A stretch of DNA of 64,000 nt from an uncultured Acidobacteriota bacterium. Lineage in GTDB: Bacteria > Acidobacteriota > Vicinamibacteria > Vicinamibacterales > CAVVIG01. Below, piece by piece: positions 6,030-54,959 of this stretch. A model generated the notes under the pieces. That model worked only from the letters and a program-made list of their open reading frames with translations, made no database searches and was not told the origin of the DNA. The position numbers and the translations under genes are program-made. Every line of letters starts with the position of its first letter. Position 1 is the first letter of the stretch. The DNA lies in NCBI GenBank assembly GCA_963757355.1, contig CAVWRG010000003.1, positions 2,465,550-2,529,549 of the forward strand, in the 5' to 3' direction.

Positions 6030-6086
6030 AATTGGTGAATTGGTCAATTGGTGAGTTGGTGAGTTCGTGAATTGGCGAGTTGCTGA
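6030..6086. repeat. One-armed tandem octamer array, TTGGTGAG family (7 units)
   Basis: AATTGGTG AATTGGTC AATTGGTG AGTTGGTG AGTTCGTG AATTGGCG AGTTGCTG. It runs from the stop of the carboxyltransferase gene to the GTG start of the amidase gene. Confidence 0.85.
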
Positions 6087-17659: not shown

Positions 17660-18370
17660 TCAGCCGCTGACGCCGATGAACTGCGCGATCTGCAGCAGAT
17701 CGAACCCGGCGTGGCTCACCATCGGCGCCACCACGGAACGTCGCCGTAGATAGACGATCCCCCAAAATGCGCCGAGCACGCCGGTGGCCAGCGTTGCATC
17801 GACACCCTGCACGAGATGCCCGACGCCGAACGCGGCGCTGGTGATGAGCACGCCGACACCGCCGCCGCCGAGCCAGACTTCGAAGCGATGCACGAGAAAC
17901 GCACGCTGAACCTCCTCGCGCACGCCGCCGGCGACGACCACCACGAGCGCGAACAGCCAGGCATCGCGCGGCGTCCGAATCAGCGCCTGGAGGGGATTGT
18001 GCTCGACCGTGTGCAGTTGGGGCGCCAGATGCTGCGCCGACAGCAGCACGGCGGCGCCCAGTCCGATCGCGACCAGAATCAAAGGGAGGCCGTGCAGCGC
18101 TTCGCCGGCGATCGATCGACGTCCGAGAAAAATATCGCGGGGACGCTCGCCATGCGCGTGCAGGAAGAGCGCAATCAGCCCGAGCAGCATCGCCGTGTCC
18201 ACCAGCGACAGCGCGACGACGAACCCGATGTGGAGCGAACCGTCTGACCGCAGGCCGAACAGCGCGAGCACGAACTGCGTGGCGATCTGCGTCGGGTAAT
18301 CGCTGCAGATGAGGACTTCGAAGGCGGCGACGAGTCGATCCGCTTTCCGCGGAGGCGTGTCAGGGCTCAT
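17660..18370 (-). CDS. CPBP family intramembrane glutamic endopeptidase (CAAX protease-like)
   Basis: Multi-TM protein with the motifs GGVREEVQRAFLVHRF, AAFGVGHLVQG and SHAGFDLL. Confidence 0.8.
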   Translation of the reverse strand: MSPDTPPRKADRLVAAFEVLICSDYPTQIATQFVLALFGLRSDGSLHIGFVVALSLVDTAMLLGLIALFLHAHGERPRDIFLGRRSIAGEALHGLPLILVAIGLGAAVLLSAQHLAPQLHTVEHNPLQALIRTPRDAWLFALVVVVAGGVREEVQRAFLVHRFEVWLGGGGVGVLITSAAFGVGHLVQGVDATLATGVLGAFWGIVYLRRRSVVAPMVSHAGFDLLQIAQFIGVSG

Positions 18371-18433
18371 GGCTGAGGGCTCATGGCCGGAGTCGAAGGC
18401 GGCGCGTCAGCCCTAGCCCTTAGCCATCTGCCA
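18363..18433. repeat. Inverted heptamer hairpin (GGCTCAT/GGCTGAG units vs TCAGCCC/TAGCCCT)
   Basis: GGGCTCATGGCTGAGGGCTCATGGCC ... TCAGCCCTAGCCCTTAGCCAT. It lies between the stop of the lipoprotein gene and the start codon of the CPBP gene. Confidence 0.6.
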
Positions 18434-20767: not shown

Positions 20768-20844
20768 GGGATTCGTGATTCGGGCTTCGGGATTCGCGGC
20801 GCCCCGAATCCCGATCGAATCCCCAATCCCGAATCCCGAATCCC
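20768..20844. repeat. Inverted heptamer hairpin, GGGATTC family
   Basis: GGGATTCGTGATTCGGGCTTCGGGATTCGCGG | CCCCGAATCCCGATCGAATCCCCAATCCCGAATCCCGAATCCC. It fills the spacer between the regulator and kinase genes. Confidence 0.85.
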
Positions 20845-23653: not shown

Positions 23654-23803
23654 CAATTGGTAAATTGGTGAGTTGATAAATTGCTAAAAGCTAAAAGATG
23701 GGGCGATTTTGCGTCCGTAGCCAAATTGCGATCGAATCAGTTTCGACAGCTCGTCAGCATTCCCGGCATTCACCAACTTACCAACTCACCAACTCACCAA
23801 CTC
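23654..23803. repeat. Inverted octamer arrays, TTGGTGAG family, with ~70-nt central loop
   Basis: Left arm CAATTGGTAAATTGGTGAGTTGATAAATTGCTAAAAGCTAAAAG (23654-23697). Right arm ATTCACCAACTTACCAACTCACCAACTCACCAACTC (23768-23803). Confidence 0.8.
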
Positions 23804-26950: not shown

Positions 26951-27100
26951 GGAACTCGGGACGGGATTTGGGATTTGGGATTAGGGATTCGATTGGGATT
27001 CGGGGTTCGCGATTCGGCGGAACCCCAAATTCCAAACCCAGATCGCAATTCCCAAATCGCGAATCACAACGCGAGTCCCAAATCCCGAATCCCGAATCCC
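26951..27100. repeat. Large inverted heptamer/octamer hairpin, GGGATTC/GGGATTT family (~150 bp)
   Basis: Left arm GGGATTTGGGATTTGGGATTAGGGATTCGATTGGGATTCGGGGTTCGCGATTCGG. Right arm CCCCAAATTCCAAACCC...GTCCCAAATCCCGAATCCCGAATCCC. It starts 1 nt after the nrdJ stop. Confidence 0.85.
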
Positions 27101-28222: not shown

Positions 28223-28269
28223 AGGGGGGCGTCGATCCCTGATCCCCGATCCCTGATCCACGCCCCCCT
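28223..28269 (+). terminator. Stem-loop after the DinB-family gene (AGGGGGGCG ... CGCCCCCCT)
   Basis: A perfect 9-bp GC stem encloses a 29-nt loop made of GATCCCT/GATCCCC heptamers and is followed by TT. Confidence 0.4.
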
Positions 28270-28310: not shown

Positions 28311-28691
28311 ATGAAACCCGCCCGCCGAAAACCGACCGACGCGGAGCTCGGAATCCTGAATGTGTTGTGGATGCGCGGGCCAAGCACTGTGCGGCAGGTG
28401 GCCGAAGCGCTGGGGCGCGAAGCCGGCTACACGACGGTGCTGAAGCTCCTCCAGATCATGACGGAGAAGCAGCTCGTCGTTCGCGACGAGACCGCGCGAA
28501 CGCACATTTATCAAGCTGCGTTCACCGAGGATCAGACGCAGCGCCAGCTCGTCTCGGATCTGCTCGACCGCGCATTCGGCGGGTCGGCAGCCAAGCTCGT
28601 GCTGCAGGCGCTCGCATCAAACAAGGCGTCGCCCGAAGAGCTCGCGGAAATCCGGAAGCTGCTGGACAAACAACGCGGAGGCGCACGATGA
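28311..28691 (+). CDS. BlaI/MecI/CopY family transcriptional repressor
   Basis: MKPARRKPTDAELGILNVLWMRGPSTVRQVAEAL...YTTVLKLLQIMTEKQLV is the winged-helix pattern of the family. ATGA overlap with the downstream M56 gene. Confidence 0.9.
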   Translation: MKPARRKPTDAELGILNVLWMRGPSTVRQVAEALGREAGYTTVLKLLQIMTEKQLVVRDETARTHIYQAAFTEDQTQRQLVSDLLDRAFGGSAAKLVLQALASNKASPEELAEIRKLLDKQRGGAR

Positions 28692-31342
28692 ACCCCTTCG
28701 TACAGGTCGCCGGCTGGACGCTGATCCACTTCCTCTGGCAGGGCGCCATTGCGGCGCTCCTGACGCGCACCGCGCTGGGGCTGGCGCGTCACCGATCAGG
28801 ACACGTTCGTTACTTGATCGCGTGCGCAGGTCTGGCGGTAGCGCTCGCCATGCCGGCTGCGACCGCCGCTCTGCTCCTGCCGGCGGAGTCCGCGGGCGCC
28901 GGCGTCTCCCTCGACGCAGCGGCTACACCGAGCGAGTCGCCATCGCACCGGTATACAAGCGACGCGGCCGCCGCGATTGGCGCGCAGCTCGAGACGCTGA
29001 ATGCGTCAGCGGTCGCGGTCGTCCGCGGCAGCGCGAGTCGCGCTGCCGATGTGATGCGCGGCATCGTGATCTTCTGGGTCATCGGCGTGGCGCTTCTCCT
29101 GGGCCGCATGGCCGCCGGCTGGTGGCAGGTTCGCGAGCTGCATCAGCTCGCGCTCGAGACGCCGGCCTCGGAATGGCAGCAGGCGTGCGCGCGCATCGGA
29201 TCGCGTCTTGGCCTCGCGCGCCTGGCGCACGTCGTCGAGTCGGCCGTCGTGGAAGTGCCGACCGTCGTCGGCTGGCTCCGGCCGGTGATCATCCTGCCGG
29301 TCGCCGCGATCGCCAACCTGACGCCGTCGCAGGTGGAAGCGATTCTCGCGCACGAGCTCGCGCACATTCGCCGGTACGATTATCTGGTCAACCTCTGTCA
29401 GACGCTGGCCGAGACGCTGCTGTTCTACCACCCGGGCGTGTGGTGGATGTCGTCGCGCATCCGCATCGAGCGCGAGCACTGCTGCGACGAGATCGCGGTC
29501 GCGATCTGCGGCGATGCGATCGGCTACGCCGAAGCGCTCACCGAGCTGGAATCGTGGCGCACCGTGTCGACGACGATGGTGCTCGCCGCGACCGGTGGAT
29601 CGCTGCTCGATCGTGTGCGGCGGATTCTGCGCGTGCCGGCCGCCGACGAGGCGCGATCGTCGAGCTGGCTCGCGACGTTGATGCTGACCCTGCTGTTCAC
29701 CGCCGGCGCAGGTGGCGTCCAGCGGCTGCCCGTGATGATGTCAGGCGTCAGCGCGCGCGCCGCGGCGATCGTCTCGGGGTCCATCGGTGCGTCGGCGCCT
29801 GACGCGACCCGGCACGAAGCAGCGGCGTCATCGCCGCGCTCGCCCCGAGCCGATGTGCCCGTCAGTGCATCGCGCACCGGTATCGTGACTACTGTGTCGG
29901 GCGCGCAGGACGCGCCCGTTGCGGACGCGCAGAATGTGCCGACGCCGGGCGCGCCGCAGACACCTGAGTCGCCTGATCCGTCGGATGCACAGGACTACTG
30001 GCCGCAGCCGCCAGCGCCGCCGTTACCGCCTTCGCCGAGTGTGCCGCCGGCGCCTCCGGCTCCGCCCGCGCCTCCGGCTCCGCCCGCAGCCGAAGCGCGC
30101 GGTTTAGCTGCACCGCCCGCGCCACCCGCGCCACCCGCTCCGCCTGCGCCGCCTGCGCCTCCCGCGGCGCCAAGTGGCAGCCACTTCTCGCTGTCGGGCG
30201 ACAACGGCGACTGGCACATGCGGTGGTCGGGCGACGGCCAACGCATGGACGTGCAGGCGCACGGCGACGTGACGTTCAACGACGACCTCACCGACGTGCA
30301 GACGATGGCGGATGGCAGCTATCTGAAAATTCGTGATTGGACGTCGATCATCCCGCACACCGTGGAGATCACGTCGGCCGGCGGAAAACTCTCGCGCGCG
30401 TACTTTGTCGGCGGCGCCTCGCGTCCATGGGACGAAGACGCGCGCCGGCTGCTCGCGACCGACATCTCGCTGCTGGTGCGCCGCTCCGGGATGTTTGCCG
30501 ACGCGCGCACTCGAACAATCCTTGAAAAGAAGGGCGTCGCGGGTGTCCTCGAGGAAATCGATCGGCTCGAGGGCGATTTTGTCCGACGCGTCTATTTTCA
30601 GGCGCTGGTGAAGCAGGCGCCGCTCGACGCAACCACCGTGCTCCCCGTGCTGGCGAAGATGAACCAGCGCATGACGTCCGACTTCGATCGACGCGAGATC
30701 CTCACGGCGATTGCACGTGCAGTGACGCTGGACGCACGGGCGGCCGCTGCCTACATGCAGGCGACCGGACCGATGAAATCCGATTTCGACCGGCGCCAGG
30801 CGCTGTCGGCGGTGCTGGCCGTCAAGCCGTTGCCGGCGGGCGTGGCCGATCTCGCGCTGCGCGCAACGACCGATATGCACTCGGACTTCGATCGCCGCCA
30901 GGTGTTTCACGCGGCGCTCGCCGGCGGCGCGTCGGTCGAGCGCGCAGACGCATGGCTTCCCGCGCTCGCGTCGATGCACTCGGCCTTCGACAAGCGCGAA
31001 GTGCTCCTGGAGCTGATCCGCACCGGTTCGCTCGGCGTGGACGCGAAGCGCGGCGTGCTGCAAGCGGCCGGCGAGATCACGTCCGACTTCGACAAGCGCA
31101 TGGTCCTCACCACGTTCGCGCAGACCTACGGCGTCGATCAGACGACGCGGGACGCGTATTTCGCAGCGGTGAAAACGATGCGGTCGGACTTCGATCGCGC
31201 CGAAGCGCTCCTCGTGCTGGCGAAATCGACGGCAATGGACGCGTCGATGCGGCCCGCTTTCGTCGAGGCGGCCCAGGGGCTGAGATCGACGTTCGATCAG
31301 AATCGCGTGCTGGCAGAGCTCGTCCGATCGGAAAAGCGTTAG
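28688..31342 (+). CDS. BlaR1-like M56 family metallopeptidase/sensor with repeat-containing C-terminal domain
   Basis: ATG 28688 gives MNPFVQVAGWTLIHFLWQGAIAALL with several TM segments. HEXXH is present (ILAHELAHIRRYD). A Pro-rich tract (PPAPPAPPAP) precedes ~8 repeats with an SDFDRR core. Confidence 0.85.
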   Translation: MNPFVQVAGWTLIHFLWQGAIAALLTRTALGLARHRSGHVRYLIACAGLAVALAMPAATAALLLPAESAGAGVSLDAAATPSESPSHRYTSDAAAAIGAQLETLNASAVAVVRGSASRAADVMRGIVIFWVIGVALLLGRMAAGWWQVRELHQLALETPASEWQQACARIGSRLGLARLAHVVESAVVEVPTVVGWLRPVIILPVAAIANLTPSQVEAILAHELAHIRRYDYLVNLCQTLAETLLFYHPGVWWMSSRIRIEREHCCDEIAVAICGDAIGYAEALTELESWRTVSTTMVLAATGGSLLDRVRRILRVPAADEARSSSWLATLMLTLLFTAGAGGVQRLPVMMSGVSARAAAIVSGSIGASAPDATRHEAAASSPRSPRADVPVSASRTGIVTTVSGAQDAPVADAQNVPTPGAPQTPESPDPSDAQDYWPQPPAPPLPPSPSVPPAPPAPPAPPAPPAAEARGLAAPPAPPAPPAPPAPPAPPAAPSGSHFSLSGDNGDWHMRWSGDGQRMDVQAHGDVTFNDDLTDVQTMADGSYLKIRDWTSIIPHTVEITSAGGKLSRAYFVGGASRPWDEDARRLLATDISLLVRRSGMFADARTRTILEKKGVAGVLEEIDRLEGDFVRRVYFQALVKQAPLDATTVLPVLAKMNQRMTSDFDRREILTAIARAVTLDARAAAAYMQATGPMKSDFDRRQALSAVLAVKPLPAGVADLALRATTDMHSDFDRRQVFHAALAGGASVERADAWLPALASMHSAFDKREVLLELIRTGSLGVDAKRGVLQAAGEITSDFDKRMVLTTFAQTYGVDQTTRDAYFAAVKTMRSDFDRAEALLVLAKSTAMDASMRPAFVEAAQGLRSTFDQNRVLAELVRSEKR

Positions 31343-31392: not shown

Positions 31393-32193
31393 GTGCCCAC
31401 CGCCGGCCGCTTCCGTTATCTTGATGCACCGCCCACCGGAGCGTCACGCGCGCGCGGCGCGCTGGTGCTCCTTCATGCATTTCCCCTGACCGCGCGGATG
31501 TGGGAACCGCAGCTCGCGCTTGCCGGGCAGGGCTGGCGGGTGATCGCTCCGCAGCTGCGCGGCTTCGATGATGCCGATCACGATTCGCCGGCTTCGTCGG
31601 TGGACGATTTCGCGGGCGACATCATCGATCTGCTCGATCGGCTTCACATTCATGAGGCGGTGATTGGCGGCCTGTCGATGGGCGGCTATGTGGCGCTCGC
31701 GATGTTTCGTCATGCGCCGCGATACTTTCAGGGGCTCGTGCTCGCGGACACGCGCGCCGATGCCGACTCGCCGGCGGCCGTCGAAGGGCGCCAGCGCATG
31801 CTGACGCTGGTGCGGACCCAAGGGTCCTCGGCCGTGGCGGACGAGATGATTCCGAAGCTGCTCGGCGACACCACGCGCGCGCAGCGTCCCGAGATCGTCG
31901 AGCGCGTGCGGTCGCTGGTGCTGGCGAACTCGAGCGCGGCAATCGCGGGCGCGGTGACGGCGCTGATGACGCGTCCTGATTCGACGCCGCTGCTGGAGAG
32001 GATTCACTGTCCGACGCTGGTCCTCGTGGGAGACGAAGACGTCGTGACGCCGAGGCCGCTCAGCGAGGCGCTGCACGCGGGCATCGCCGGATCCACGCTC
32101 GCGTCGGTACCGGTTGCAGGCCATCTGTCGAGTCTGGAGCAGCCGGGTGCGTTCAATGAGGCGCTCGGGCGATTTTTGGAGCACAGGATATAG
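31393..32193 (+). CDS. Alpha/beta hydrolase
   Basis: GTG 31393. Motifs are ...LVLLHAFPLTARMWEPQ... and the nucleophile elbow GGLSMGGYVAL, with a C-terminal ...VAGHLSSLEQP. Confidence 0.8.
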   Translation: MPTAGRFRYLDAPPTGASRARGALVLLHAFPLTARMWEPQLALAGQGWRVIAPQLRGFDDADHDSPASSVDDFAGDIIDLLDRLHIHEAVIGGLSMGGYVALAMFRHAPRYFQGLVLADTRADADSPAAVEGRQRMLTLVRTQGSSAVADEMIPKLLGDTTRAQRPEIVERVRSLVLANSSAAIAGAVTALMTRPDSTPLLERIHCPTLVLVGDEDVVTPRPLSEALHAGIAGSTLASVPVAGHLSSLEQPGAFNEALGRFLEHRI

Positions 32194-32227
32194 TCGTCAG
32201 TCGTCAGTCGCAAATCTCAGTCGTCAG
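32192..32227. repeat. Short heptamer array (AGTCGTC units)
   Basis: AGTCGTC AGTCGTC AGTCGCA AATCTC AGTCGTC between the hydrolase stop and the next start. Confidence 0.6.
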
Positions 32228-37841: not shown

Positions 37842-38008
37842 TTGGGAAGTTGGTGAGTTAGTGAGTTGGTGAGTTGGTGAGTTGGCGAGTTGGTAAGTTG
37901 GTAAGTTGGTAAGTTGCTAAGTTGGTGAGTTGACGGCTTGGCGAGTTGGCGATTTGGTGCATTGAATTCGCCAAATCACCAATTCACCAATTTACCAATT
38001 CACCAACT
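37842..38008. repeat. Largest inverted octamer array, TTGGTGAG family (~15 units forward, ~5 units reverse complement)
   Basis: GGAAGTTGGTGAGTTAGTGAGTTGGTGAGTTGGTGAGTTGGCGAGTTGGTAAGTTGGTAAGTTGGTAAGTTGCTAAGTTGGTGAGTTGACGGCTTGGCGAGTTGGCGATTTGGTG - CATTGAATT - CGCCAAATCACCAATTCACCAATTTACCAATTCACCAACTT. It occupies the entire spacer between convergent stops. Confidence 0.9.
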
Positions 38009-39037
38009 TCAGTATGGCAGCTCGTTATTTTCGGCCGCGGCGCGTTCGGTGCTGCGTGTCAGGCGTGACGGCGCCCAGGCGGAGCCGCTCTGCCAGCCGG
38101 TGCGCGGGCGGTCGCCCGATGCGTCCGTCGCCGACGGCAAGAGGCGGTTGGCCCACTCCATCACCAGCGCGACACCCTCAGGCATGAGGGCATTGGCGAC
38201 GACCGCGAGCTTCGCCGGCCAGCTGATCACGAGCTCGGCATCGCCGTGGCGGCAGGCGTCGACCACCTGCCCAGCCGCACGCGCGGCGTCGATCGAGGCG
38301 ATGGGCATCGAATCGGAAATCGCAAACCAGGTGAACTCGTCGCGATAACGCCCCTTGAACCACGCGTTGAACGGCGAGCCGGTGCGCATCATGCCCGGGC
38401 AGACGGTCGTCACGTGAATGCCGTCCTTTGCGAGCTCGCTGCGGACTGAGTCGGACAATCCGGTGAGCGCAAACTTGCTCGCGCAGTACGGCGTCAGGTG
38501 CGGCACGCCGATTTTGCCTCCGATCGAAGAGATGTTGACGATCCGTCCGCCGCCGCGCCGGCGCATCTCCGGGATCGCCGTCAGCATCGTGTGCAGCGGC
38601 CCCCAGAAGTGCACCGCCATCGCTTCTTCGAAGTCGCCTCGCTGCATGTGATCGAGCGGGCCGACCTTGATCACGCCCGCGTTGTTGATCAGCACGTCGA
38701 TGCGTCCTGTGCGCGCCACGACGCCGCGGACCAGCTGTGTGGCCTCCTCGCGATCGCCGACGTTGCAGACGACGATCGCCGCCTCGATGCCGCGGCCGGC
38801 GAGATCATCGCGCGCCCGTTGCAGCTCGGCTTCATCACGGGCGGCGAGCGTGACGCGCGCCCCTTCGCGGCCGAACTCGCGAGCGAGCAGCAGCCCGAGC
38901 CCGCGCGAGCCGCCGGTGATCACAACTGAGCAGCCGTCGAACGTCATCGATCGCACGGCGCGAATCTGGCGTGCAATCAGCGCCGCGCCGATCGTCGCGA
39001 CGCCAGCTGCCAGCGCCGTTTGCTGTGTCTTGTTCAT
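38009..39037 (-). CDS. SDR family oxidoreductase with N-terminal membrane anchor
   Basis: ATG at 39037 gives MNKTQQTALAAGVATIGAALIA... followed by VVITGGSRGLGLLLA, NNAG and YCASKFAL. The track ORF extends spuriously to 39829. Confidence 0.85.
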   Translation of the reverse strand: MNKTQQTALAAGVATIGAALIARQIRAVRSMTFDGCSVVITGGSRGLGLLLAREFGREGARVTLAARDEAELQRARDDLAGRGIEAAIVVCNVGDREEATQLVRGVVARTGRIDVLINNAGVIKVGPLDHMQRGDFEEAMAVHFWGPLHTMLTAIPEMRRRGGGRIVNISSIGGKIGVPHLTPYCASKFALTGLSDSVRSELAKDGIHVTTVCPGMMRTGSPFNAWFKGRYRDEFTWFAISDSMPIASIDAARAAGQVVDACRHGDAELVISWPAKLAVVANALMPEGVALVMEWANRLLPSATDASGDRPRTGWQSGSAWAPSRLTRSTERAAAENNELPY

Positions 39038-39160
39038 GCGGCCATCGCCAGCAATCGACGTACCCCAATCTGCCCTCTGAAATCTGTCATCTGAAATTTC
39101 GCGACACGAGCCCTTTCGCCTCTTGTTCTCCCCGCCGCCGGCTGTTAGGATCGAACCCTC

Positions 39161-41797
39161 ATGCCGGACGCTTCGGCACCCACACTGACTGGTCTGGCAG
39201 CCCGCTCCACGCGCGACGGCGCTCTCGACGCCGCCCTCGAGCGGCTGGCGGGTGATCGGCTGCACAGAGACGGGTCTCCGCCCGACGTTCGGAGACCCGT
39301 CCCCCCGGAGACCCGTTCCTCTCTCGACCGACCCGACACGCCCGACCTGCACGTCACCGCAGTCCGCCGCCTCCCGGCCGTTCCCGCGCAGTTCGCACCG
39401 TTTCCAGAGGCGCTCGATCCGCGGCTGCGGCGTGCGCTCGCATCGCGCGGCATCGCGCAGGCCTACACGCATCAGGCCGAAGCGATCGAGCACGCGCTTG
39501 CCGGCCGCCATACCGTCGTCGTCACGCCGACGGCATCCGGCAAGACGCTCTGCTACAACGCGCCGGTCTTGCACGCGATCCTGCAAGATCCAGCGGCGCG
39601 CGCGCTCTATCTGTTTCCGACGAAAGCGCTCGCGCAGGATCAGCTCGCCGAGCTGCAGGCGATGTGCGAAACGCTGTCGGGGCTGCCGTCGGGGACAGGT
39701 CTCGGCGAGGATGAACGAGACCTGTCCCCGATCAGCGTCTTCACCTACGACGGCGACACGCCGCAGGACGCGCGGCGCACGATTCGGGGACGCGCGCATC
39801 TCGTCCTCAGCAATCCGGACATGGTGCACTCAGGCATCCTGCCGCACCACCCGCGATGGGCAAAGCTCTTCGAGAATCTCCGTTACGTGATCATCGACGA
39901 GCTGCACGCCTACCGAGGCGTCTTCGGCAGTCACCTGTGCAACGTGCTGCGGCGGCTGCGCCGCATCTGCCGGCATTACGGATCGAATCCGGTGTTCCTC
40001 TGTTCGTCGGCGACCATCGCGAACCCGCAGGAGCTGGCGGAACGGCTCACCGAGCAGCCATTCGAGTTGGTCGATCAAAGCGGCGCACCGCGCGGCGAGA
40101 AGTTCTTCGTGTTCGTCAACCCGCCGGTGGTGAATCAGCCGCTGGGCATCCGCCGGTCGTATCTGAGTGAGACGCGCCGCATTGCCGCCGAATTCCTGAA
40201 GCGGAATCTGCAGCTGATCGTCTTCGCGCAGAGCCGTCTCGCCACCGAGATTCTGACGACGTACCTGAAGGACGACTTCGAAGGGATGCCTGGCGCACCC
40301 GAGCGGATCCGTGGGTATCGCGGCGGATATCTGCCGAATCGGCGCCGCGAGATCGAAAAGGGCTTGCGGGAAGGTGCGGTGCGCGCGGTGGTCTCGACCA
40401 ACGCGCTCGAGCTCGGCATCGACATCGGTGCGCTCGACGTCAGCGTCATGGCCGGCTACCCGGGGACGATCGCGGGGACGTGGCAGCGCGCCGGGCGCGC
40501 CGGACGCCGCGCCAGCCGATCGGCGGCAGTGATGGTCGCCAGCAGCGCACCGCTCGATCAGTTCGTCGTCCGCAACCCGTCGTACTTCTTCGACGCGTCG
40601 CCCGAGCGCGCGCTGATCGATCCTGACAACCTCCATATCCTGGTCGATCACATCAAGTGCGCCGCCTTCGAGCTGCCGTTCACGACGAGCGAGGCGTTCG
40701 GCCGGCACGACCTCCAGGAGATTCTGTCGCTGCTGGCGGAGCAGGGGCTGGTGCATCGCGCCGGCGGCAGCGCCGACCTCGACGCGCCGGAGGTCGAAAC
40801 GCAGTGGACGTGGACGAACGAATCGTACCCGGCCGACGCGGTCAGCCTGCGGTCGGTGTCCTCAGACAATTTCGTGATTGTCGATACGACAGAGGAGACG
40901 TGCGTCATCGGAGAGACCGATTTCACGAGCGGCCCCGCCACGCTCCATCCCAAAGCGATCTACATCGTCGAAGGGAAGCTGTATCAGGTGGAGAGGCTCG
41001 ATTTCGAAGGACGCAAGGCGTTCGTGCGCGCGATCGAGTGTGACTACTACACGACCGCGATCACGTACACGCGGGTGACGATCCTCGATACGTTTGCGCA
41101 AGGCGCGGAGGAACAGGGGTACGGCCCCTTTTCGGGTGAGTCCGGCGACGAAAAGGGGCCGTACCCCTTTTCCTCGCACGGCGAGGTCCACGTCGTGTCG
41201 CGCGTCGTCGGGTTCAAGAAGATCAAGTTCTATACGAACGAAAATGTCGGATCCGGCGAGCTCGACCTGCCCGAGCAGCAGATGCACACGACCGCGTACT
41301 GGCTGACCATTCCAGCGTCGGTGATGAGGCTGCTGCCGTGCGCCTCGGACGATCGGCGCGACGGCGTCGTTGGCTTGGCGTTCGCGATGCGCCAGGTCGC
41401 GCAGCTGCTGTTGATGTGCGATGGGCACGACATCGGCATCTCAATTTCCGGATTCGGGATTGGGGATGCGGGATTGGGGCCGAAAGCGGGCCAGTCGAAT
41501 CCCGCATCCCCAATCCCCAATCCCGACGGCGTTCAGATCTTTGTGTACGACAATTACCCGGGTGGGATTGGTTTCAGCGAGCCGTTGTTCCGGATGCACG
41601 ATGAGTTGCTCGCCGCGACGCGCCGTCTCATCGCCGAGTGCGAGTGCGAGAGCGGTTGCCCGGGATGCGTCGGCCCCGTCGGCAATACCGGACCGCTCGC
41701 GAAAGTGGTGGCGCTGCGGATTCTCGATCTGTTGACGGGCGCGACGGCGCTCTCCACGCCGGCGCACACGGTCGATCCAGAGGTTCAACCTTTTTGA
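39161..41797 (+). CDS. DEAD/DEAH-box helicase with C-terminal DUF1998 zinc domain (MrfA/YprA-like)
   Basis: Motif I VVVTPTASGKTLCY, motif II IIDELHAY, SAT-like SSATIAN, and QRAGRAGRR. The C-terminus carries CECESGCPGCV. Two repeat insertions lie in frame. Confidence 0.9.
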   Translation: MPDASAPTLTGLAARSTRDGALDAALERLAGDRLHRDGSPPDVRRPVPPETRSSLDRPDTPDLHVTAVRRLPAVPAQFAPFPEALDPRLRRALASRGIAQAYTHQAEAIEHALAGRHTVVVTPTASGKTLCYNAPVLHAILQDPAARALYLFPTKALAQDQLAELQAMCETLSGLPSGTGLGEDERDLSPISVFTYDGDTPQDARRTIRGRAHLVLSNPDMVHSGILPHHPRWAKLFENLRYVIIDELHAYRGVFGSHLCNVLRRLRRICRHYGSNPVFLCSSATIANPQELAERLTEQPFELVDQSGAPRGEKFFVFVNPPVVNQPLGIRRSYLSETRRIAAEFLKRNLQLIVFAQSRLATEILTTYLKDDFEGMPGAPERIRGYRGGYLPNRRREIEKGLREGAVRAVVSTNALELGIDIGALDVSVMAGYPGTIAGTWQRAGRAGRRASRSAAVMVASSAPLDQFVVRNPSYFFDASPERALIDPDNLHILVDHIKCAAFELPFTTSEAFGRHDLQEILSLLAEQGLVHRAGGSADLDAPEVETQWTWTNESYPADAVSLRSVSSDNFVIVDTTEETCVIGETDFTSGPATLHPKAIYIVEGKLYQVERLDFEGRKAFVRAIECDYYTTAITYTRVTILDTFAQGAEEQGYGPFSGESGDEKGPYPFSSHGEVHVVSRVVGFKKIKFYTNENVGSGELDLPEQQMHTTAYWLTIPASVMRLLPCASDDRRDGVVGLAFAMRQVAQLLLMCDGHDIGISISGFGIGDAGLGPKAGQSNPASPIPNPDGVQIFVYDNYPGGIGFSEPLFRMHDELLAATRRLIAECECESGCPGCVGPVGNTGPLAKVVALRILDLLTGATALSTPAHTVDPEVQPF
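41111..41173. repeat. Paired palindromic mini-element inside the helicase CDS (arms GGGGTACGGCCCC then GGGGCCGTACCCC)
   Basis: GAACAGGGGTACGGCCCCTTTTC - 16 nt - GAAAAGGGGCCGTACCCCTTTTCC, 63 nt in all. It is translated as EQGYGPFSGESGDEKGPYPFS. Confidence 0.85.
41448..41525. repeat. Inverted heptamer hairpin (GGGATTS family) inside the helicase CDS
   Basis: A perfect 20-bp inverted repeat, GGGATTGGGGATGCGGGATT (41456-41475) and AATCCCGCATCCCCAATCCC (41498-41517). The 78-nt block stays in frame. Confidence 0.9.
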
Positions 41798-43083
41798 GCG
41801 CGCTCTCCGACCGCCTGCGTGGCATCATCGGCGCGCCGCCGCCTGGCGCCGCGGGGACCGGATCCCAAGTCCCGTGGAGCGGATCCCAAATCCCGGCCGA
41901 ATCCCAAATCCCGATCGAATCCCGAATCCCAAATCCCGAATCCCGAGATCTCTCCTGCCTGGCCGGCGAATGGCGCGGTGGCTGTTTCGTCGTGGAGCGG
42001 CGATACGACCGTGGCGTCTGCTATGGCCACGAGCCCGTCGGGGCGCTCTGGAGCCGCCTGGCAGCAGCCGCAGACGAGGCGCCGCTTGTCGCCGGCGGTG
42101 CGCCGGCGCGGCTGCCGTTCGTGTTCTTCGATTTGGAAACCACCGGTCTGAGCGGCGGCGCCGGCACTCACGCGTTTCTGGTGGGCTGCGCCTCGTTCGA
42201 CGAAGAAGGCGCGTTCGTCACGCGGCAATTCCTGCTCACGCGCTTCACCGACGAGAAGCCGCTGCTCGCCGCGGTGGCCGCCGAGCTCGCCCGGGCGGGC
42301 GCGTTGGTCAGCTTCAACGGCAAGTCGTTCGACGCGCCGGTGCTGGAGACGCGCTACTTGTATCACCGGCTGCCATGGGCCGCAGGGCAGCTGCCGCACA
42401 TGGACGTTCTGCACCCGGCACGGCGCTTCTGGCGCGACGAGCAGGAGATGGCGAGCTGTTCGCTGGTGTCGCTCGAGCGTCAGATCCTCGGGGCGCGCCG
42501 CATCGGCGACGTCCCGGGATTCGAGATTCCTGCGCGTTACTTTCAGTTCATTCGGAGTGGCGAGGCGCGCCCGCTGGCGGCCGTGCTCGAGCACAACCGG
42601 CTCGATTTGTTGTCGCTCGCCGGGCTGACCGCGCGCCTGCTGCATCTCATCCGCCGGGGTCCTGGCGCCGCGAAGGACGCGCGCGAGGCGTTGGCGCTCG
42701 GACGGGTGTACCTGCGTGCCGGGCTCGAGGTGCGCGCGTGCGACGCGTTCCAACAGGCGGCCGACCGATCGAGCGCGCACAGCGCGGTCAGAATCGAGTC
42801 GCTGCGCGCGCTGGCGCTGGCCTGGCGCCGCGCGCGGCAGCACGACCGCGCGGCAGCCTGCTGGAGCGCGCTGCTCGACGCGCCCGCGTGTCCGCGCCAC
42901 GTCGCACGTGAGGCGACCGACGCGCTCGCGATTCATCACGAGCATCGCGTCCGCGATCTCGCCGCGGCGAAAGGCTTTGCATTACGAAGTCTGGAATCCG
43001 GCGTGCATCCCGCCAGTCACGCGGCGGTGAGGCATCGTCTGGCACGGATCGAGCGGAAGATGAGCTCGCGTTTGCTGCTGTAG
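41794..43083 (+). CDS. DEDDh-type 3'-5' exonuclease with TPR-like C-terminus (MrfB/YprB-like)
   Basis: The TTG start overlaps the helicase stop (TTGA) and gives (M)SALSDRLRGII. Exo motifs are FFDLETTGL, FNGKSFDAPVLETRY and LEHNRLDLLSLAGL, with a helical repeat tail. The start is uncertain. Confidence 0.75.
   Translation: MSALSDRLRGIIGAPPPGAAGTGSQVPWSGSQIPAESQIPIESRIPNPESRDLSCLAGEWRGGCFVVERRYDRGVCYGHEPVGALWSRLAAAADEAPLVAGGAPARLPFVFFDLETTGLSGGAGTHAFLVGCASFDEEGAFVTRQFLLTRFTDEKPLLAAVAAELARAGALVSFNGKSFDAPVLETRYLYHRLPWAAGQLPHMDVLHPARRFWRDEQEMASCSLVSLERQILGARRIGDVPGFEIPARYFQFIRSGEARPLAAVLEHNRLDLLSLAGLTARLLHLIRRGPGAAKDAREALALGRVYLRAGLEVRACDAFQQAADRSSAHSAVRIESLRALALAWRRARQHDRAAACWSALLDAPACPRHVAREATDALAIHHEHRVRDLAAAKGFALRSLESGVHPASHAAVRHRLARIERKMSSRLLL
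41860..41946. repeat. One-armed heptamer array (GAATCCC/AAATCCC units) inside the exonuclease CDS
   Basis: GGATCCCAAGTCCC...GGATCCCAAATCCCGGCCGAATCCCAAATCCCGATCGAATCCCGAATCCCAAATCCCGAATCCCGAG, translated as GSQVPWSGSQIPAESQIPIESRIPNPESR. Confidence 0.85.
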
Positions 43084-43198
43084 CCGGGTCCAGAAGGACC
43101 CGGCCTACAATCGGAGGCCGTAGTCGCGTCCAAAGGACCCGCCCTGCAATCGGAGGCCGTAGCCGGATCCCACAGGACCCGGTTTTCAACCGGGCGGC
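43080..43198. repeat. Three tandem ~40-bp REP-like units (GTAG-hairpin-CCTAC)
   Basis: GTAGCCGGGTCCAGAAGGACCCGGCCTACAATCGGAGGCC / GTAGTCGCGTCCAAAGGACCCGCCCTGCAATCGGAGGCC / GTAGCCGGATCCCACAGGACCCGGTTTTCAACCGGGCGGC. The first GTAG contains the exonuclease TAG stop. Confidence 0.85.
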
Positions 43199-44561: not shown

Positions 44562-44655
44562 CGAGGCTCAACTCGCACGCTGGCGATCAGCGTCGGTCGA
44601 GTGCGTCGCTTCGTTGAGCGTTATTTCGTTGAGCGTTGAGAGTTGCTTGTTGGAA
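44562..44655. repeat. Short heptamer array (CGTTGAG units) with weak inverted partner (CTCAAC)
   Basis: ...TTCGTTGAGCGTTATTTCGTTGAGCGTTGAGAGTTGCTTGTTGG with upstream GGCTCAACTCGC, in the spacer between the rho stop and the reductase start. Confidence 0.45.
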
Positions 44656-46554: not shown

Positions 46555-46641
46555 GGGATTTGTGATTCGTGATTGGGATTCGGCGGGATTCGTCTCGAAT
46601 CCGACCGGCTGCGAATCCCAAATCCCGAATCCCGAATCCCC
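46555..46641. repeat. Inverted heptamer hairpin, GGGATTC family
   Basis: GGGATTTGTGATTCGTGATTGGGATTCGGCGGGATTCGT | CGAATCCGACCGGCTGCGAATCCCAAATCCCGAATCCCGAATCCC. It fills the spacer between the engB start and the lon stop. Confidence 0.85.
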
Positions 46642-49047: not shown

Positions 49048-49121
49048 ATTTGGTGAGTTGGCAATTTGGTAAATGGGTAAATTGAACTTACCAATTTACC
49101 AACTTATCCATTTACCAATTT
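49048..49121. repeat. Inverted octamer hairpin, TTGGTGAG/TTGGTAAA family
   Basis: ATTTGGTGAGTTGGCAATTTGGTAAATGGGTAAATTG | ACTTACCAATTTACCAACTTATCCATTTACCAATTTC. It spans the whole lon-clpX spacer. Confidence 0.85.
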
Positions 49122-50371: not shown

Positions 50372-50383
50372 GCTGTCTCTCTT

Positions 50384-50429
50384 GTAGCGCGGGACCTGCG
50401 GTCCCGCCCGGCCTAAAGACCTGCGCTAC
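50384..50429. repeat. REP-like hairpin (GTAGCGC-GGGACC-TGC-GGTCCC-...-GCGCTAC)
   Basis: GTAG/CTAC termini enclose a GGGACC/GGTCCC stem, in the clpX-clpP spacer. Confidence 0.6.
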
Positions 50430-50439
50430 AACTGGTTAC

Positions 50440-51051: not shown

Positions 51052-51321
51052 AGACGATTGTCCTCGGGGCGCCGGCTCGGATGCGGGCCGCACGTCAGAT
51101 CAGTTAGGCCGTCGCGCGAGCGTCCGGCATGTCACACGATGTTGGCTAGGATGGATTTGCCCCGGCAGGGCGAGCACTGCCAGCTATTGTAACACGTGAA
51201 ACGCGCGGAACGCCTCTGGTGCAGATCCGAGCACTTTTACCGGGGACATTCCGCCCGATGATCACGTATCCGTCGGCCTCCGACAAATTTTGTCCGGTGT
51301 CGTCCAGCTGAACCGGATGCC

Positions 51322-51345
51322 GAAAAGGGGCCGTACCCCTTTTCC
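51322..51345. terminator. Single arm of the palindromic mini-element (GAAAAGGGGCCGTACCCCTTTTCC) downstream of tig
   Basis: A4G4-CCGTA-C4T4 hairpin 27 nt after the tig stop on the minus strand. It has a U-run on either strand, giving a bidirectional intrinsic-terminator shape. Confidence 0.45.
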
Positions 51346-51371
51346 CTCCACGCCGCGACCGTCCGCCGCGC

Positions 51372-52698: not shown

Positions 52699-52816
52699 AT
52701 TTGGTGATCTGGTGATTTGGTGACTTGGCGATTGATGACCTGGCGAATGGGATGTCAGTGCAGTCACTAACACCCTCAATTCACCAACTCTCCAACTCAC
52801 CAACTCGCCAATTTTA
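52699..52816. repeat. Inverted octamer hairpin, TTGGTGAY family
   Basis: ATTTGGTGATCTGGTGATTTGGTGACTTGGCGATTGATGACCTGGCGAATGG - 25-nt loop - TCAATTCACCAACTCTCCAACTCACCAACTCGCCAATTTT. It lies between tRNA-Leu and the tig start. Confidence 0.85.
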
Positions 52817-53297: not shown

Positions 53298-53357
53298 AAA
53301 AGGGGCCGTACCCCTTTTTCAGGTGCGCCCAAGAAAAAGGGGTACAGCCCCTTTTAC
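53296..53357. repeat. Paired palindromic mini-element between convergent genes
   Basis: AGAAAAGGGGCCGTACCCCTTTTTC - 12 nt - GAAAAAGGGGTACAGCCCCTTTTAC. It overlaps the stop codons of the small ORF (+) and the methylase (-). Confidence 0.85.
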
Positions 53358-54337
53358 GAGCTCAGCGTTCTCGGCGTCAGATTCGAGATCAGGAATTCGT
53401 CGACCGGGCCGCGGCCGGCCGCGTCGCTGTTCATCGCGCGACGCGCGGGGACGCGCACCGCGCGAAGACCGGCGGCGCGCGCGTCGACGCTCGTGTCGTA
53501 GAGCGCCGCGATTTCGCGCGCGGTGGAATTGCTGACCAGCACGTAGCATCCGCGCCCCGCCAACTCGATCACCATCCGCTGCACGCGCGTCTGATCCTCG
53601 AGCGTGAAGCGCGGCGCCGTGTACGACGTGAAGTTCGCCGTCGCGCTCAGCGGTGCGTACGGTGGATCGACGTACAGAAAATCGCCCGCCTCCGCGATGC
53701 CGAGCGCCGCCTCGAACGATCCGCAGATCAATTGCACCCGCGCGCTCGCCAGCGCCGCCGCGACGCGAAACAATTTCGCGCGATCGCAGATCGATGGCCG
53801 CGCATAGCGTCCGGCCGGCACGTTGTACGCGCCGCTCGCATTGACCCGAAAGAGCCCGTTGAACCCGGTGCGATTGAGATAGATGAGCATCGCGGCGAGC
53901 TGCGGGGTGTACGCAATGCGGCCGTCCGCGCGCCGGCGCTGCTCGCGCTGCGGGTTGAATTGCGCATCCCGCACGGCGTAGTAGTGCGCGGAGCCGTCCG
54001 CGGCATGCGCCGCTGCGAGCTCGCCCAGCGCCCGCGACACTTGCTCCGGCTGGTCGCGCACGGTCTCGTAGCAGCCGATCAGATCCGGATTCGAGTCGAT
54101 GAGAATCGCGTCGTGATCCCGCAGCCGGCCCGCGCCCCACAAGTCGAAGAACACGGCGCCGCTGCCGAAGAACGGCTCGACGTACCGGCCGAACGCCTCG
54201 GGATAGAAGCGGCGCAGCTGCGGCAGGAGCTGTCGCTTGCCGCCCGCCCACTTGAGCAACGGACCTGCTTGATTGCCGGGCGACGATTGGTGACTTGGTG
54301 CCCCGGTGACTTGGCGAATGACGCCGCTCTTCATCAT
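53354..54337 (-). CDS. dam: DNA adenine methyltransferase (Dam-like, D12 class N6-MTase)
   Basis: LLKWAGGKRQLLPQL...EPFFGSGAVFF (FxGxG SAM motif)...FLYVDPPY (DPPY catalytic motif). The ~25-aa N-terminal extension is encoded by repeat units, so the start is uncertain. Confidence 0.9.
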   Translation of the reverse strand: MMKSGVIRQVTGAPSHQSSPGNQAGPLLKWAGGKRQLLPQLRRFYPEAFGRYVEPFFGSGAVFFDLWGAGRLRDHDAILIDSNPDLIGCYETVRDQPEQVSRALGELAAAHAADGSAHYYAVRDAQFNPQREQRRRADGRIAYTPQLAAMLIYLNRTGFNGLFRVNASGAYNVPAGRYARPSICDRAKLFRVAAALASARVQLICGSFEAALGIAEAGDFLYVDPPYAPLSATANFTSYTAPRFTLEDQTRVQRMVIELAGRGCYVLVSNSTAREIAALYDTSVDARAAGLRAVRVPARRAMNSDAAGRGPVDEFLISNLTPRTLSS

Positions 54338-54382
54338 GTCGTCGAATTTACCAACTCACCAACTCACCAACTCACCAATTTC
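54284..54382. repeat. Inverted octamer hairpin, TTGGTGAC/TTGGTGAG family, straddling the methylase start codon
   Basis: Left arm CGATTGGTGACTTGGTGCCCCGGTGACTTGGCGAATG (in the CDS). The loop carries the CATCAT start codons (54332-54337). Right arm GAATTTACCAACTCACCAACTCACCAACTCACCAATTTC. Confidence 0.85.
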
Positions 54383-54864: not shown

Positions 54865-54959
54865 CTCGCCAATTGGCGAGTTGGCGAGTTGGAGAGTTGG
54901 CGAGTTGGCGAGTTGAAATCACCAATTCACCAATTCACCAATTCACCAATTCACCGAAT
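54865..54959. repeat. Inverted octamer hairpin, TTGGCGAG / CACCAATT family
   Basis: GCTCGCCAATTGGCGAGTTGGCGAGTTGGAGAGTTGGCGAGTTGGCGAGTTG | AAATCACCAATTCACCAATTCACCAATTCACCAATTCACCGAAT. It includes the perfect 16-bp palindrome CTCGCCAATTGGCGAG. Confidence 0.9.

Follow-up and report, generated by a model that had tools for sequence, protein, structure and literature searches.

What fills the gap between two converging genes at positions 37842-38008 of a 64-kb stretch of DNA from an uncultured Acidobacteriota bacterium (contig CAVWRG010000003.1; the whole 64,000 nucleotides are called the window below)? A first-pass annotation, made from the letters alone, described this spacer as a run of octamers followed by a run of the reverse-complement unit. 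It proposed that the same layout fills most intergenic spacers of the window, and that structure rather than unit sequence is generated or selected. We find that the layout is real and recurrent, and that the units fall into dispersed families. The reading that we favour, tentatively and with a little less than even confidence, is that the spacer is one copy of a dispersed, family-structured, slippage-prone 'hairpin minisatellite', plausibly co-opted as a transcript-end hairpin.

The focal element occupies, exactly and end to end, the stop-to-stop spacer between a zinc alcohol-dehydrogenase-like gene on the + strand (stop TAA, 37839-41) and a short-chain dehydrogenase gene on the - strand (stop TGA, 38009-11). 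Tandem Repeats Finder (TRF) resolved the 5' run into 14.0 copies of an 8-nt unit (37848-37959, 83% matches) and the 3' run into 5.8 copies of the reverse-complement unit (37965-38011), as the annotation had described. The two runs are joined not by the 9-nt turn claimed there but by a GAATTC-centred junction of ~5 nt. The best inverted-repeat match has arms of 46 nt that are 85% complementary. Folding was compared with 200 shuffles. The RNA fold of the + strand reached -94.2 kcal/mol (z -14.3), that of the - strand -54.1 kcal/mol (z -8.7), and the DNA fold of the + strand gave a z of -8.8. The right arm pairs with the outermost left units, and surplus left units self-pair via G.U. The stem is ~45 bp long, has ~50% GC and lacks a T-tract. 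Within the 5' arm, identical variant units adjoin one another (P = 0.03). A comparison of the focal surroundings with Rfam gave just sub-threshold matches to eukaryotic miRNA-precursor models, which amount to generic long hairpins.

Elements of the same build were catalogued across the 64 kb of genome in hand. The resulting 19 loci are the 18 listed by the first-pass annotation, all of which hold the contents described for them, and 41855-41946, which that list lacked. TRF returned 38 rows and 7 strict inverted pairs for the real window; in 30 dinucleotide shuffles of it, short arrays averaged 3.2 and inverted pairs numbered 0. The geometry, (unit)n-centre-(reverse-complement unit)m, is real and recurrent. 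An assembly artefact or chance low complexity was considered, as short tandem repeats can mis-assemble and unit counts may be inexact. The shuffles speak against it, as do the occurrence of the same architecture in independent short- and long-read assemblies from many projects and the alignment of window arrays with orthologous ones in a relative (L127, see below). This reading has next to no probability left and is effectively refuted.

The units in the window form family A (TTGGTGAG), family B (GGGATTC), two C families (C1, GGACACGG; C2, CACGAAG) and two weak loci. The annotation had merged the CACGAAG and GGACACGG loci; the arrays are there, in two separate subfamilies. Elements are 53 to ~285 nt long, varying with unit number. 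The geometry gives a highly significant hairpin potential: 15 of the 18 listed loci, the focal spacer among them, reached a z of -3.5 or below for one or both strands. Those that did not are 6030-6086 and the two weak loci, which the annotation had called minor versions and which are present, with weak folds.

Table 1. Repeat elements in the 64-kb window. A, B, C1 and C2 are unit families; L numbers are relatives described in the text; z is from fold comparisons with shuffled sequence.
Element	Position	Strand	Units and build	Setting	Fold z
C1	3687-3760		GGACACGG / CCGTGTCC	4 nt past FAA-hydrolase gene stop	-4.5/-3.7
A, half-element	6030-6086	+	G-rich arm only; 7 units, TRF 7.1 copies	whole gap from carboxyltransferase stop to amidase start	-2.8
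C1	7720-7772				-7.2/-4.8
C2	17548-17642		CACGAAG / CTTCGTG	convergent genes on both sides	-3.5/-6.3
Weak	18363-18433		GGGCTNA-type units		about -2, marginal
B	20768-20844		GGGATTC / GAATCCC	sigma-54 response-regulator / histidine-kinase gap	-5.1/-5.7
A	23654-23803		80-nt non-repeat centre	722-nt spacer upstream of class II ribonucleotide reductase gene	
B	26951-27100			immediately past ribonucleotide reductase stop codon	-7.6/-6.3
C2	33097-33186				-4.7/-9.1
C2	35730-35870		arms flank ~80-nt centre	divergent (start-to-start) spacer	
A, focal 5' arm	37842-37963		~15 octamers: TTGGTGAG, TTGGTAAG, TTGGCGAG	starts at TAA of + strand alcohol-dehydrogenase-like gene	
A, focal centre and 3' arm	37964-38008		GAATTC, then ~5-6 AATTCACC-type units (reverse complement of TTGGTGAA)		
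B, coding	41448-41525		78 nt = 26 in-frame codons	helicase gene 39161-41797	-6.0/-6.9
B, half-element	41855-41946	-	C-rich arm only on + strand (TRF); no hairpin		
Weak	44562-44655		CTCAAC / GTTGAG	past rho stop codon	-1.2, not significant
B	46555-46641			spans lon-engB spacer; orthologous array in L127	
A	49048-49121			spans clpX-lon spacer; orthologous arrays in L127 and L129	
A	52699-52816			tRNA-Leu to tig start codon; no array there in L001	
A	54284-54382			putative anti-sigma gene / D12 adenine methyltransferase gene gap	
A	54865-54959			extracytoplasmic function (ECF) sigma gene / putative anti-sigma gene gap; L001 spacer just 14 nt	

An element is held by 18 of the 35 spacers of at least 30 nt, which is fewer than the 'most' of the annotation, and elements make up 28% of the non-coding bases of the window. 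By spacer type, 15 of 28 tandem, 2 of 4 convergent and 1 of 3 divergent spacers are occupied. The density of family motifs outside genes is ~8-18 times that inside them, and ~95% of array bases across the 19 loci are non-coding. The adjacent stop codon lies at a median distance of 5 nt (typically 0-7 nt), and several stop codons form part of an element's first unit, in line with the earlier description of arrays after stop codons and in convergent gaps. Pfam assignments agree with the operon contexts named there (response regulator/kinase, ECF sigma/next gene, clpX/lon). Arrays had also been claimed in coding sequences (CDSs), and one such case stands. The array at 41448-41525 maps by Pfam, and by alignment to the orthologue in a relative (L003), to a variable loop in the MZB domain of a MrfA-like helicase, which tolerates this 26-codon repeat-encoded loop. 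The elements occupy unconstrained DNA, mostly just past stop codons, and in one case a variable protein loop. The helicase gene itself, of the DEAD/MZB type, adjoins an RNase_H_2-superfamily, MrfB-like gene (41992-43083), and the pair is kept in L001 and L003.

Placement past stop codons, together with the strong fold z-scores, is what would be expected if the elements were RNA hairpins that evolved locally under selection, as terminators, 3' stabilisers, RNase III sites or insulators, unit duplication being the quickest route to a long stem. The scarcity of canonical terminators fits as well: they are not enriched in the window (18 found, 12.9 +/- 3.6 expected). The elements are not intrinsic terminators themselves, as they lack a U-tract and the terminator scan flagged no paired array; its sole match in the listed loci is a short stem inside the weak 44562-44655. 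At the gathering threshold, the Rfam scan returned tRNA-Leu only. We consider such locally selected hairpins an unlikely account, for reasons that lie in the arms, in their polarity and in the sharing of units.

The two arms of an element behave independently. Among 51 TRF pairs the period was 7 in 23 and 8 in 26, the median arm had 4.4 copies, and the copy numbers of paired arms were uncorrelated (rho 0.16, P 0.26). Complementarity was not higher between arms of the same locus than between those of different loci (0.53 versus 0.55 in family A, 0.63 versus 0.65 in family B), and locus-specific co-variation was rejected. At 54865-54959 variants are arm-specific, made uniform inside one arm and not between the two: one arm holds TTGGCGAG 4-5 times and the other the reverse complement of TTGGTGAA 4 times. 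The array at another locus (L045) consists of 10 copies of CGAACTCA followed by 7 of CCAACTCA. Long arrays contain blocks of identical variant units, the signature of slippage or unequal exchange. With all arms pooled, clustering of identical neighbours gave P 0.16, and it was significant for the long focal arm only. An age gradient inside arms, with inner units more degenerate, was not seen (0.62 versus 0.69, P 0.39). Central gaps were slightly more unit-like than outer flanks (P 0.006), for which base composition could account. Each arm, then, behaves as a tandem array that evolves on its own via slippage or unequal exchange. Selection on local RNA structure would not predict that same-locus arms pair no better than different-locus arms, that arm lengths are uncorrelated, or that surplus units remain outside the stem. 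Half-elements, the copy in a divergent spacer and the copy inside a CDS also sit badly with it.

Some arrays have no inverted partner. In the window these include (GATCCCT)3.7 and (AGTCGTC)5.3 (28234-28259, 32192-32227, 39067-39097), and in relatives (GGGCTAA)5 in a clpP-clpX spacer (L126:2125-2160) and (GGTTCTN)10 upstream of tRNA-Leu (L129:3640-3730). Tandem arrays therefore also form without pairing.

The polarity of the elements is nearly invariant. The G-rich arm lies 5' of the centre in 36 pairs against 3, and in 24 unit families against 2; family A alone has 26 G-first and 0 C-first. In loci that had been retrieved via ClpX and not via a repeat pattern, the ratio for skewed families was 9:1. 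On both strands, the G-rich strand thus reads 5' to 3' from either flank toward the centre. This is a new regularity and a clue to how the repeats arise. It is not predicted by hairpin stability, nor by selection on local RNA structure. Of 14 oriented loci, 8 had the better fold in sense RNA and 6 in antisense, no consistent difference, and this lack of asymmetry again counts against a selected RNA. RNA-level selection through G.U asymmetry, tried as an explanation, left no signal in the same comparison. Candidate causes of the polarity are that the G/T-rich strand snaps back and primes, that the G-strand is extended at both break ends, that selection acts against a C-rich, Rho-loadable RNA arm coming first, and that it acts against a G-rich arm, with many start codons and Shine-Dalgarno-like sequences, right before the next gene. 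Mimicry of Shine-Dalgarno/anti-Shine-Dalgarno sequence (GGTGA/TCACC), combined with all-frame stops, was considered as the reason for TTGGTGAG and rejected, as it does not generalise to B and C.

The first two of these candidates lead to a DNA-level account, in which the arrays are scars of repeat synthesis: either G-strands are extended at both ends of a break that is then joined, as in interstitial telomeric repeats, or a G/T-rich strand snaps back and primes itself. In the latter version single-stranded (TTGGTGAG)n, and not (CTCACCAA)n, would self-prime. Both versions predict the G-strand running toward the centre on both strands. Arms that are unequal, uncorrelated and not co-adapted would follow, and so would half-elements and the presence of elements wherever DNA is unconstrained, the protein loop included. 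The centres are short and junction-like (TTGA/TCAA) or carry filler, and the G/T-rich arm can self-pair via G.U/G.T. However, we know of no bacterial enzyme that adds 7-8-nt repeats, and the window contains no candidate gene. The arms are not mirrored in register, the age gradient is missing, and a few families are C-first. An identical terminator-like core in Gemmatimonadota elements (below) favours whole-element copying over capture of filler. We regard repeat-synthesis scars as improbable. A broader version of the idea takes the arrays to be footprints of an unrecognised repeat-adding process (break-end synthesis or snap-back), neither selected structures nor classical transposons, because they are G-first across families and phyla, have unmatched arms and junction-like centres, include half-elements and share TTGGTGAG across phyla. 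We give this version very little credence.

Orthologous spacers show turnover of the elements. The ClpX of the window, a protein with no identical entry on record, assigns it to Vicinamibacterales (Acidobacteriota). A metagenome scan yielded 80 loci, of which 7 (L123-L129) have a ClpX 95-98% identical to that of the window. The ClpX of L001 is 97% identical. At fourfold-degenerate sites these close relatives are 0.61-0.69 identical to the window (random expectation 0.48), which corresponds to roughly one neutral substitution per site. At clpX-lon, family-A-type inverted arrays of about 4 + 4 units are present in the window, L127 and L129. The same spacer contains a remnant-like 26-nt hairpin in L123, is a GC-rich stretch of 27 nt in L128 and carries an inverted repeat without tandem units in L001; in L124, L125 and L126 the genes are 2-5 nt apart and have no array. 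Non-repeat hairpins are also found in L003, L136 and L159. In more distant relatives the spacer is occupied by simple GC hairpins, by REP-like palindromes of the GTAG kind or by inverted arrays built from other units (GTCCGAT, GATTGCA, CCAGTTC, AACTGG). In relatives with 88-89% ClpX identity (L002-L005), no arrays were seen in the tig-clpP-clpX-lon region. At lon-engB, five genomes have five different units: GGGATTC in the window, GGATTAG in L127, AGATTGC in L124, AGAGGCT in L128 and ACAGGCTGG in L129; L126 and L001 have no spacer there. The sigma/anti-sigma spacer measures 105 nt with its array in the window versus 14 nt in L001, and an AATTGCA inverted array upstream of tRNA-Leu in L001 has no counterpart there in the window.

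Orthologous spacers of relatives thus hold other families, plain hairpins or nothing, and unit numbers are similar in L127. By megablast, the alignment of the window with L127 runs through the clpX-lon and lon-engB arrays despite a fourfold identity of 0.61, so arrays can survive considerable divergence with unit numbers that remain similar. The filled and empty junctions at clpX-lon, lon-engB and sigma/anti-sigma showed no target-site duplication, and gain and loss were indistinguishable there. Three of these observations favour local selection on RNA structure: non-repeat GC hairpins stand at the clpX-lon spacer of relatives, the lon-engB arrays form hairpins with five unrelated units, and at clpX-lon both arms share the same unit variant in each orthologue (TAA/TTA in the window, TGA/TCA in L127, GGGTAA/TTACCC in L129). 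That account does explain the placement at stop codons, the swap for ordinary hairpins and the differing units at one spacer.

Units are shared well beyond the window. A scan for three copies of TTGGYRAG, with one genome per species, gave at least 117 loci. Acidobacteriota or Gemmatimonadota account for 35 of the matches listed, of which 13 are clearly inverted. Inverted arrays of other units were found in loci from Bacteroidota, Caldilineales, Geobacter and others. In Gemmatimonadota, 5 loci in 2 metagenome-assembled genomes have TTGGTGAG arrays on both sides of a near-identical core, AAACGGCCTCGGGA-N10-TCCCGAGGCCGTTT, so whole elements are duplicated there. This core has the intrinsic-terminator feature and resembles a bidirectional terminator, which would suit a selected RNA role. 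A phage vector was considered and rejected, as just 3 matches were found among the viral contigs of IMG/VR. A dispersed or tandem repeat of ~31 nt (GTCATCCCGAGCGAGCGCAGCGA...GAGGGATC) adjoins TTGGTGAG arrays in Gemmatimonadota (L104:4560-4700, L112:900-1100, L013:700-760).

Units therefore belong to families that are copied among loci and present in several genomes, with a fixed polarity. The proposal of the first-pass annotation that unit sequence differs while geometry is conserved stands for the geometry. The units are not free, as they form dispersed families and TTGGTGAG occurs in both Acidobacteriota and Gemmatimonadota. The view that structure is the sole target is too simple: selection for hairpins alone predicts neither the families, nor the shared TTGGTGAG across loci and phyla, nor the fixed polarity. 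The evidence for selected pairing itself is weak because arms are not co-matched, copy numbers are uncorrelated and a sense bias is lacking.

Repetitive extragenic palindromic (REP) sequences, with the bacterial interspersed mosaic elements (BIMEs) and REPINs built from them, are dispersed hairpin families that lie after genes, form symmetric pairs of fixed polarity and are both selfish and co-opted (mRNA 3' protection, termination). A REP unit is a palindrome of 20-40 nt headed by GTAG, whereas the window arrays are tandem 7-8-mers without GTAG or such a palindrome unit; REP/BIME/REPIN membership was rejected on these features. MITEs (miniature transposable elements with inverted repeats) were rejected on the missing target-site duplication at filled versus empty junctions and on a length that varies with unit number. 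CRISPR membership was rejected, as the arrays are contiguous inverted 7-8-mers and the window has no cas domains. For these three classes, feature tests agree with the annotation, which had set the arrays apart from REP/BIME, MITE and CRISPR layouts; its separation from enterobacterial repetitive intergenic consensus (ERIC) layouts is supported as well. REP-like sequence does occur apart from the arrays: a 39-nt unit, GTAGCCGGGTCCAAAGGACCCGCCCTACAATCGGAGGCC, is repeated 2.6 times at 43080-43181 between the RNase_H_2-like gene and rpmE, and a GTAGCGC...GCGCTAC hairpin lies in the clpP-clpX spacer (50372-50439). Similar GTAG palindromes occupy the clpX-lon spacer in L134 and L159.

The layout of inverted 7-8-nt arrays is already published and mechanistically unsolved; what is new here are the phyla Acidobacteriota and Gemmatimonadota, for which we found no account of such elements in the literature. 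One close case is Xanthomonas, with 70-75 convergent opposite-strand array pairs per genome that are capable of forming stem-loops (Rehm et al. 2015, PLoS One, PMC4692102). These GGGAATC heptamers are ~90% intergenic and lie nearer the end of the upstream open reading frame (ORF), and their position is kept between species while length and sequence vary (PMC4692102). The unit almost equals GGGATTC of family B (PMC4692102). Against this one family, which forms G-quadruplexes (G4s), the window sets four or more, the majority of them octamers that lack G-tracts; its density (about half of the spacers) exceeds that in Xanthomonas, and the host phylum differs. In Geobacter metallireducens, three classes of 3-5 tandem octa- or heptanucleotides were described as 'putative global regulator binding sites' (Aklujkar et al. 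2009, PMC2700814). Most form opposite-strand pairs, with a variable distance between the two arrays. The repeats are lineage-specific, absent from G. sulfurreducens and present inside operons such as proB-proA, where the sister species differs in sequence (PMC2700814). The presence of several classes per genome and of paired opposite-strand arrays is as in the window; the units are unrelated to those of the window, and the repeats were read as sites for IHF/HU and not analysed as hairpins (PMC2700814).

The short tandemly repeated repetitive (STRR) sequences of the cyanobacteria Nostoc and Anabaena form several heptamer families per genome, are intergenic and hairpin-capable (for example at hupS-hupL), and have been proposed to act in transcript stability, translational coupling or termination (PMC2670836). 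Few paired arrays were reported for the G-rich STRR family of Nostoc (PMC4692102). Their host genomes are low-GC, and the units differ from those of the window. TAACTGA heptamers of Beggiatoaceae, cyanobacteria and Bacteroidetes are looser relatives: like the window arrays they are intergenic, stop-codon-rich units near gene boundaries, but they sit just upstream of start codons (PMC4679880). Almost all are direct repeats (169 sets versus 1 inverted) and occur across phyla, which suggested horizontal spread without an evident mechanism (MacGregor 2015, PMC4679880).

Measured against these systems, the window elements have tandem 7-8-nt units with at least 3-4 copies per array, paired opposite-strand convergent arrays of one unit close together, and numerous copies within the 64 kb that are dispersed, lie for the most part between genes and are close to where the upstream ORF ends. 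Their location is kept while length and sequence vary, as seen for the window and L127 at clpX-lon and lon-engB. The G3 tracts of the Xanthomonas and Nostoc repeats are found in family B only, and in neither the focal family A nor family C. Compared with the published cases, there are more unit families and a higher density here. The elements would thus be the acidobacterial counterpart of the Xanthomonas, G. metallireducens and STRR paired repeats.

The published readings for Geobacter (IHF/HU) and Xanthomonas (G4) raise the question of whether the arrays are binding sites or non-B DNA, serving a nucleoid or regulatory protein, a single-strand binder with ~7 nt per monomer, or a G4. The conservation of TTGGTGAG beyond neutral expectation across genomes and phyla would fit, as would the near-restriction of periods to 7 or 8 nt; where a family B arm has four or more GGG tracts, it matches the G4 motif. 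The lack of G-tracts in families A and C means that G4 is not the general principle and that the G4 reading is inapplicable to the focal TTGGTGAG family. Several unrelated families, differing in close relatives, would need many fast-changing proteins. In addition, the units degenerate freely and the inverted pairing is left unexplained. We judge an origin as binding sites or non-B DNA to be a poor prospect.

We return to the hairpin minisatellite. It consists of 7-8-nt units in a G/T-rich tandem array, then a centre that is short or has decayed, then a reverse-complement array. Spread would occur by copying, with mobilisation in trans or ectopic templated repair as candidate routes, and the elements would be near-neutral or selfish passengers that survive in unconstrained DNA only. 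In a transcript from either strand, the element would form an imperfect hairpin of 30-45 bp where the upstream cistron ends. There it may substitute for the ordinary 3' hairpins of relatives, with a role in 3'-end protection, as an insulator or terminator-like. Such a dual nature, selfish and co-opted, would parallel that of REP elements.

Several points weigh against this interpretation. The 64 kb have no gene for a transposase, a REP-associated tyrosine transposase (RAYT) or a reverse transcriptase. Filled and empty sites revealed neither a target-site duplication nor defined termini, so the case for mobility comes from family structure alone. A founder element by itself leaves the near-universal G-first polarity of independent families unexplained. 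As for a co-opted RNA role, no U-tract follows the window hairpins on their 3' side, sense RNA is not systematically stabler (8 versus 6), and copies are also found in a divergent spacer and inside a CDS. Finally, the evidence covers 64 kb of this genome.

A few further features of the region were recorded. A D12-class N6-adenine DNA methyltransferase gene (53354-54337, - strand) lies between the putative anti-sigma gene and tRNA-Leu and has no counterpart at the syntenic place in L001; with family A arrays flanking it on both sides, it may have been inserted recently. The tig-clpP spacer (51094-51371) is 278 nt long in the window versus ~75-105 nt in close relatives. It holds a terminator-like GGGGTACGGCCCCTTTT hairpin and a promoter-like stretch, TGTTACAAT, which is common to relatives (GTGCTACAAT). 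Public gene calls fuse ClpX with Lon or ClpP into proteins of 570-709 aa (P0001, P0003, P0004, P0007, P0016), and in L001:10001-12130 clpX lacks its stop codon, for which a long-read indel is the probable cause. Repeat arms free of stops may contribute to read-through calls of this kind. At 30007-30171, a gene for a BlaR1-like M56 peptidase (28688-31342) contains tandemly repeated units of 9, 18 and 27 nt (CCGCCCGCGCCTCCGGCT and the like), which encode a Pro/Ala-rich segment and are unrelated to the inverted arrays.

The nature and spread of STRR-type repeats have been in question for 35 years. One layout has received three published explanations, as G-quadruplexes, IHF/HU sites and transcript stabilisers. 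Our analysis unites these scattered reports, shows turnover at orthologous sites and adds the G-first polarity rule. Seeing one class narrows the mechanisms to those compatible with 7-8-nt units, independent arms, G-first order, placement past stop codons and rapid replacement of unit families where sites are conserved. In practical terms, stop-free C-rich arms can mislead gene callers, and the arrays can break short-read assemblies. The same layout occurs in Bacteroidota, Chloroflexota and Geobacter, and it recurs in the abundant, poorly studied soil phyla Acidobacteriota and Gemmatimonadota. With about half of the spacers seen here occupied, it would add long hairpins to most transcripts.

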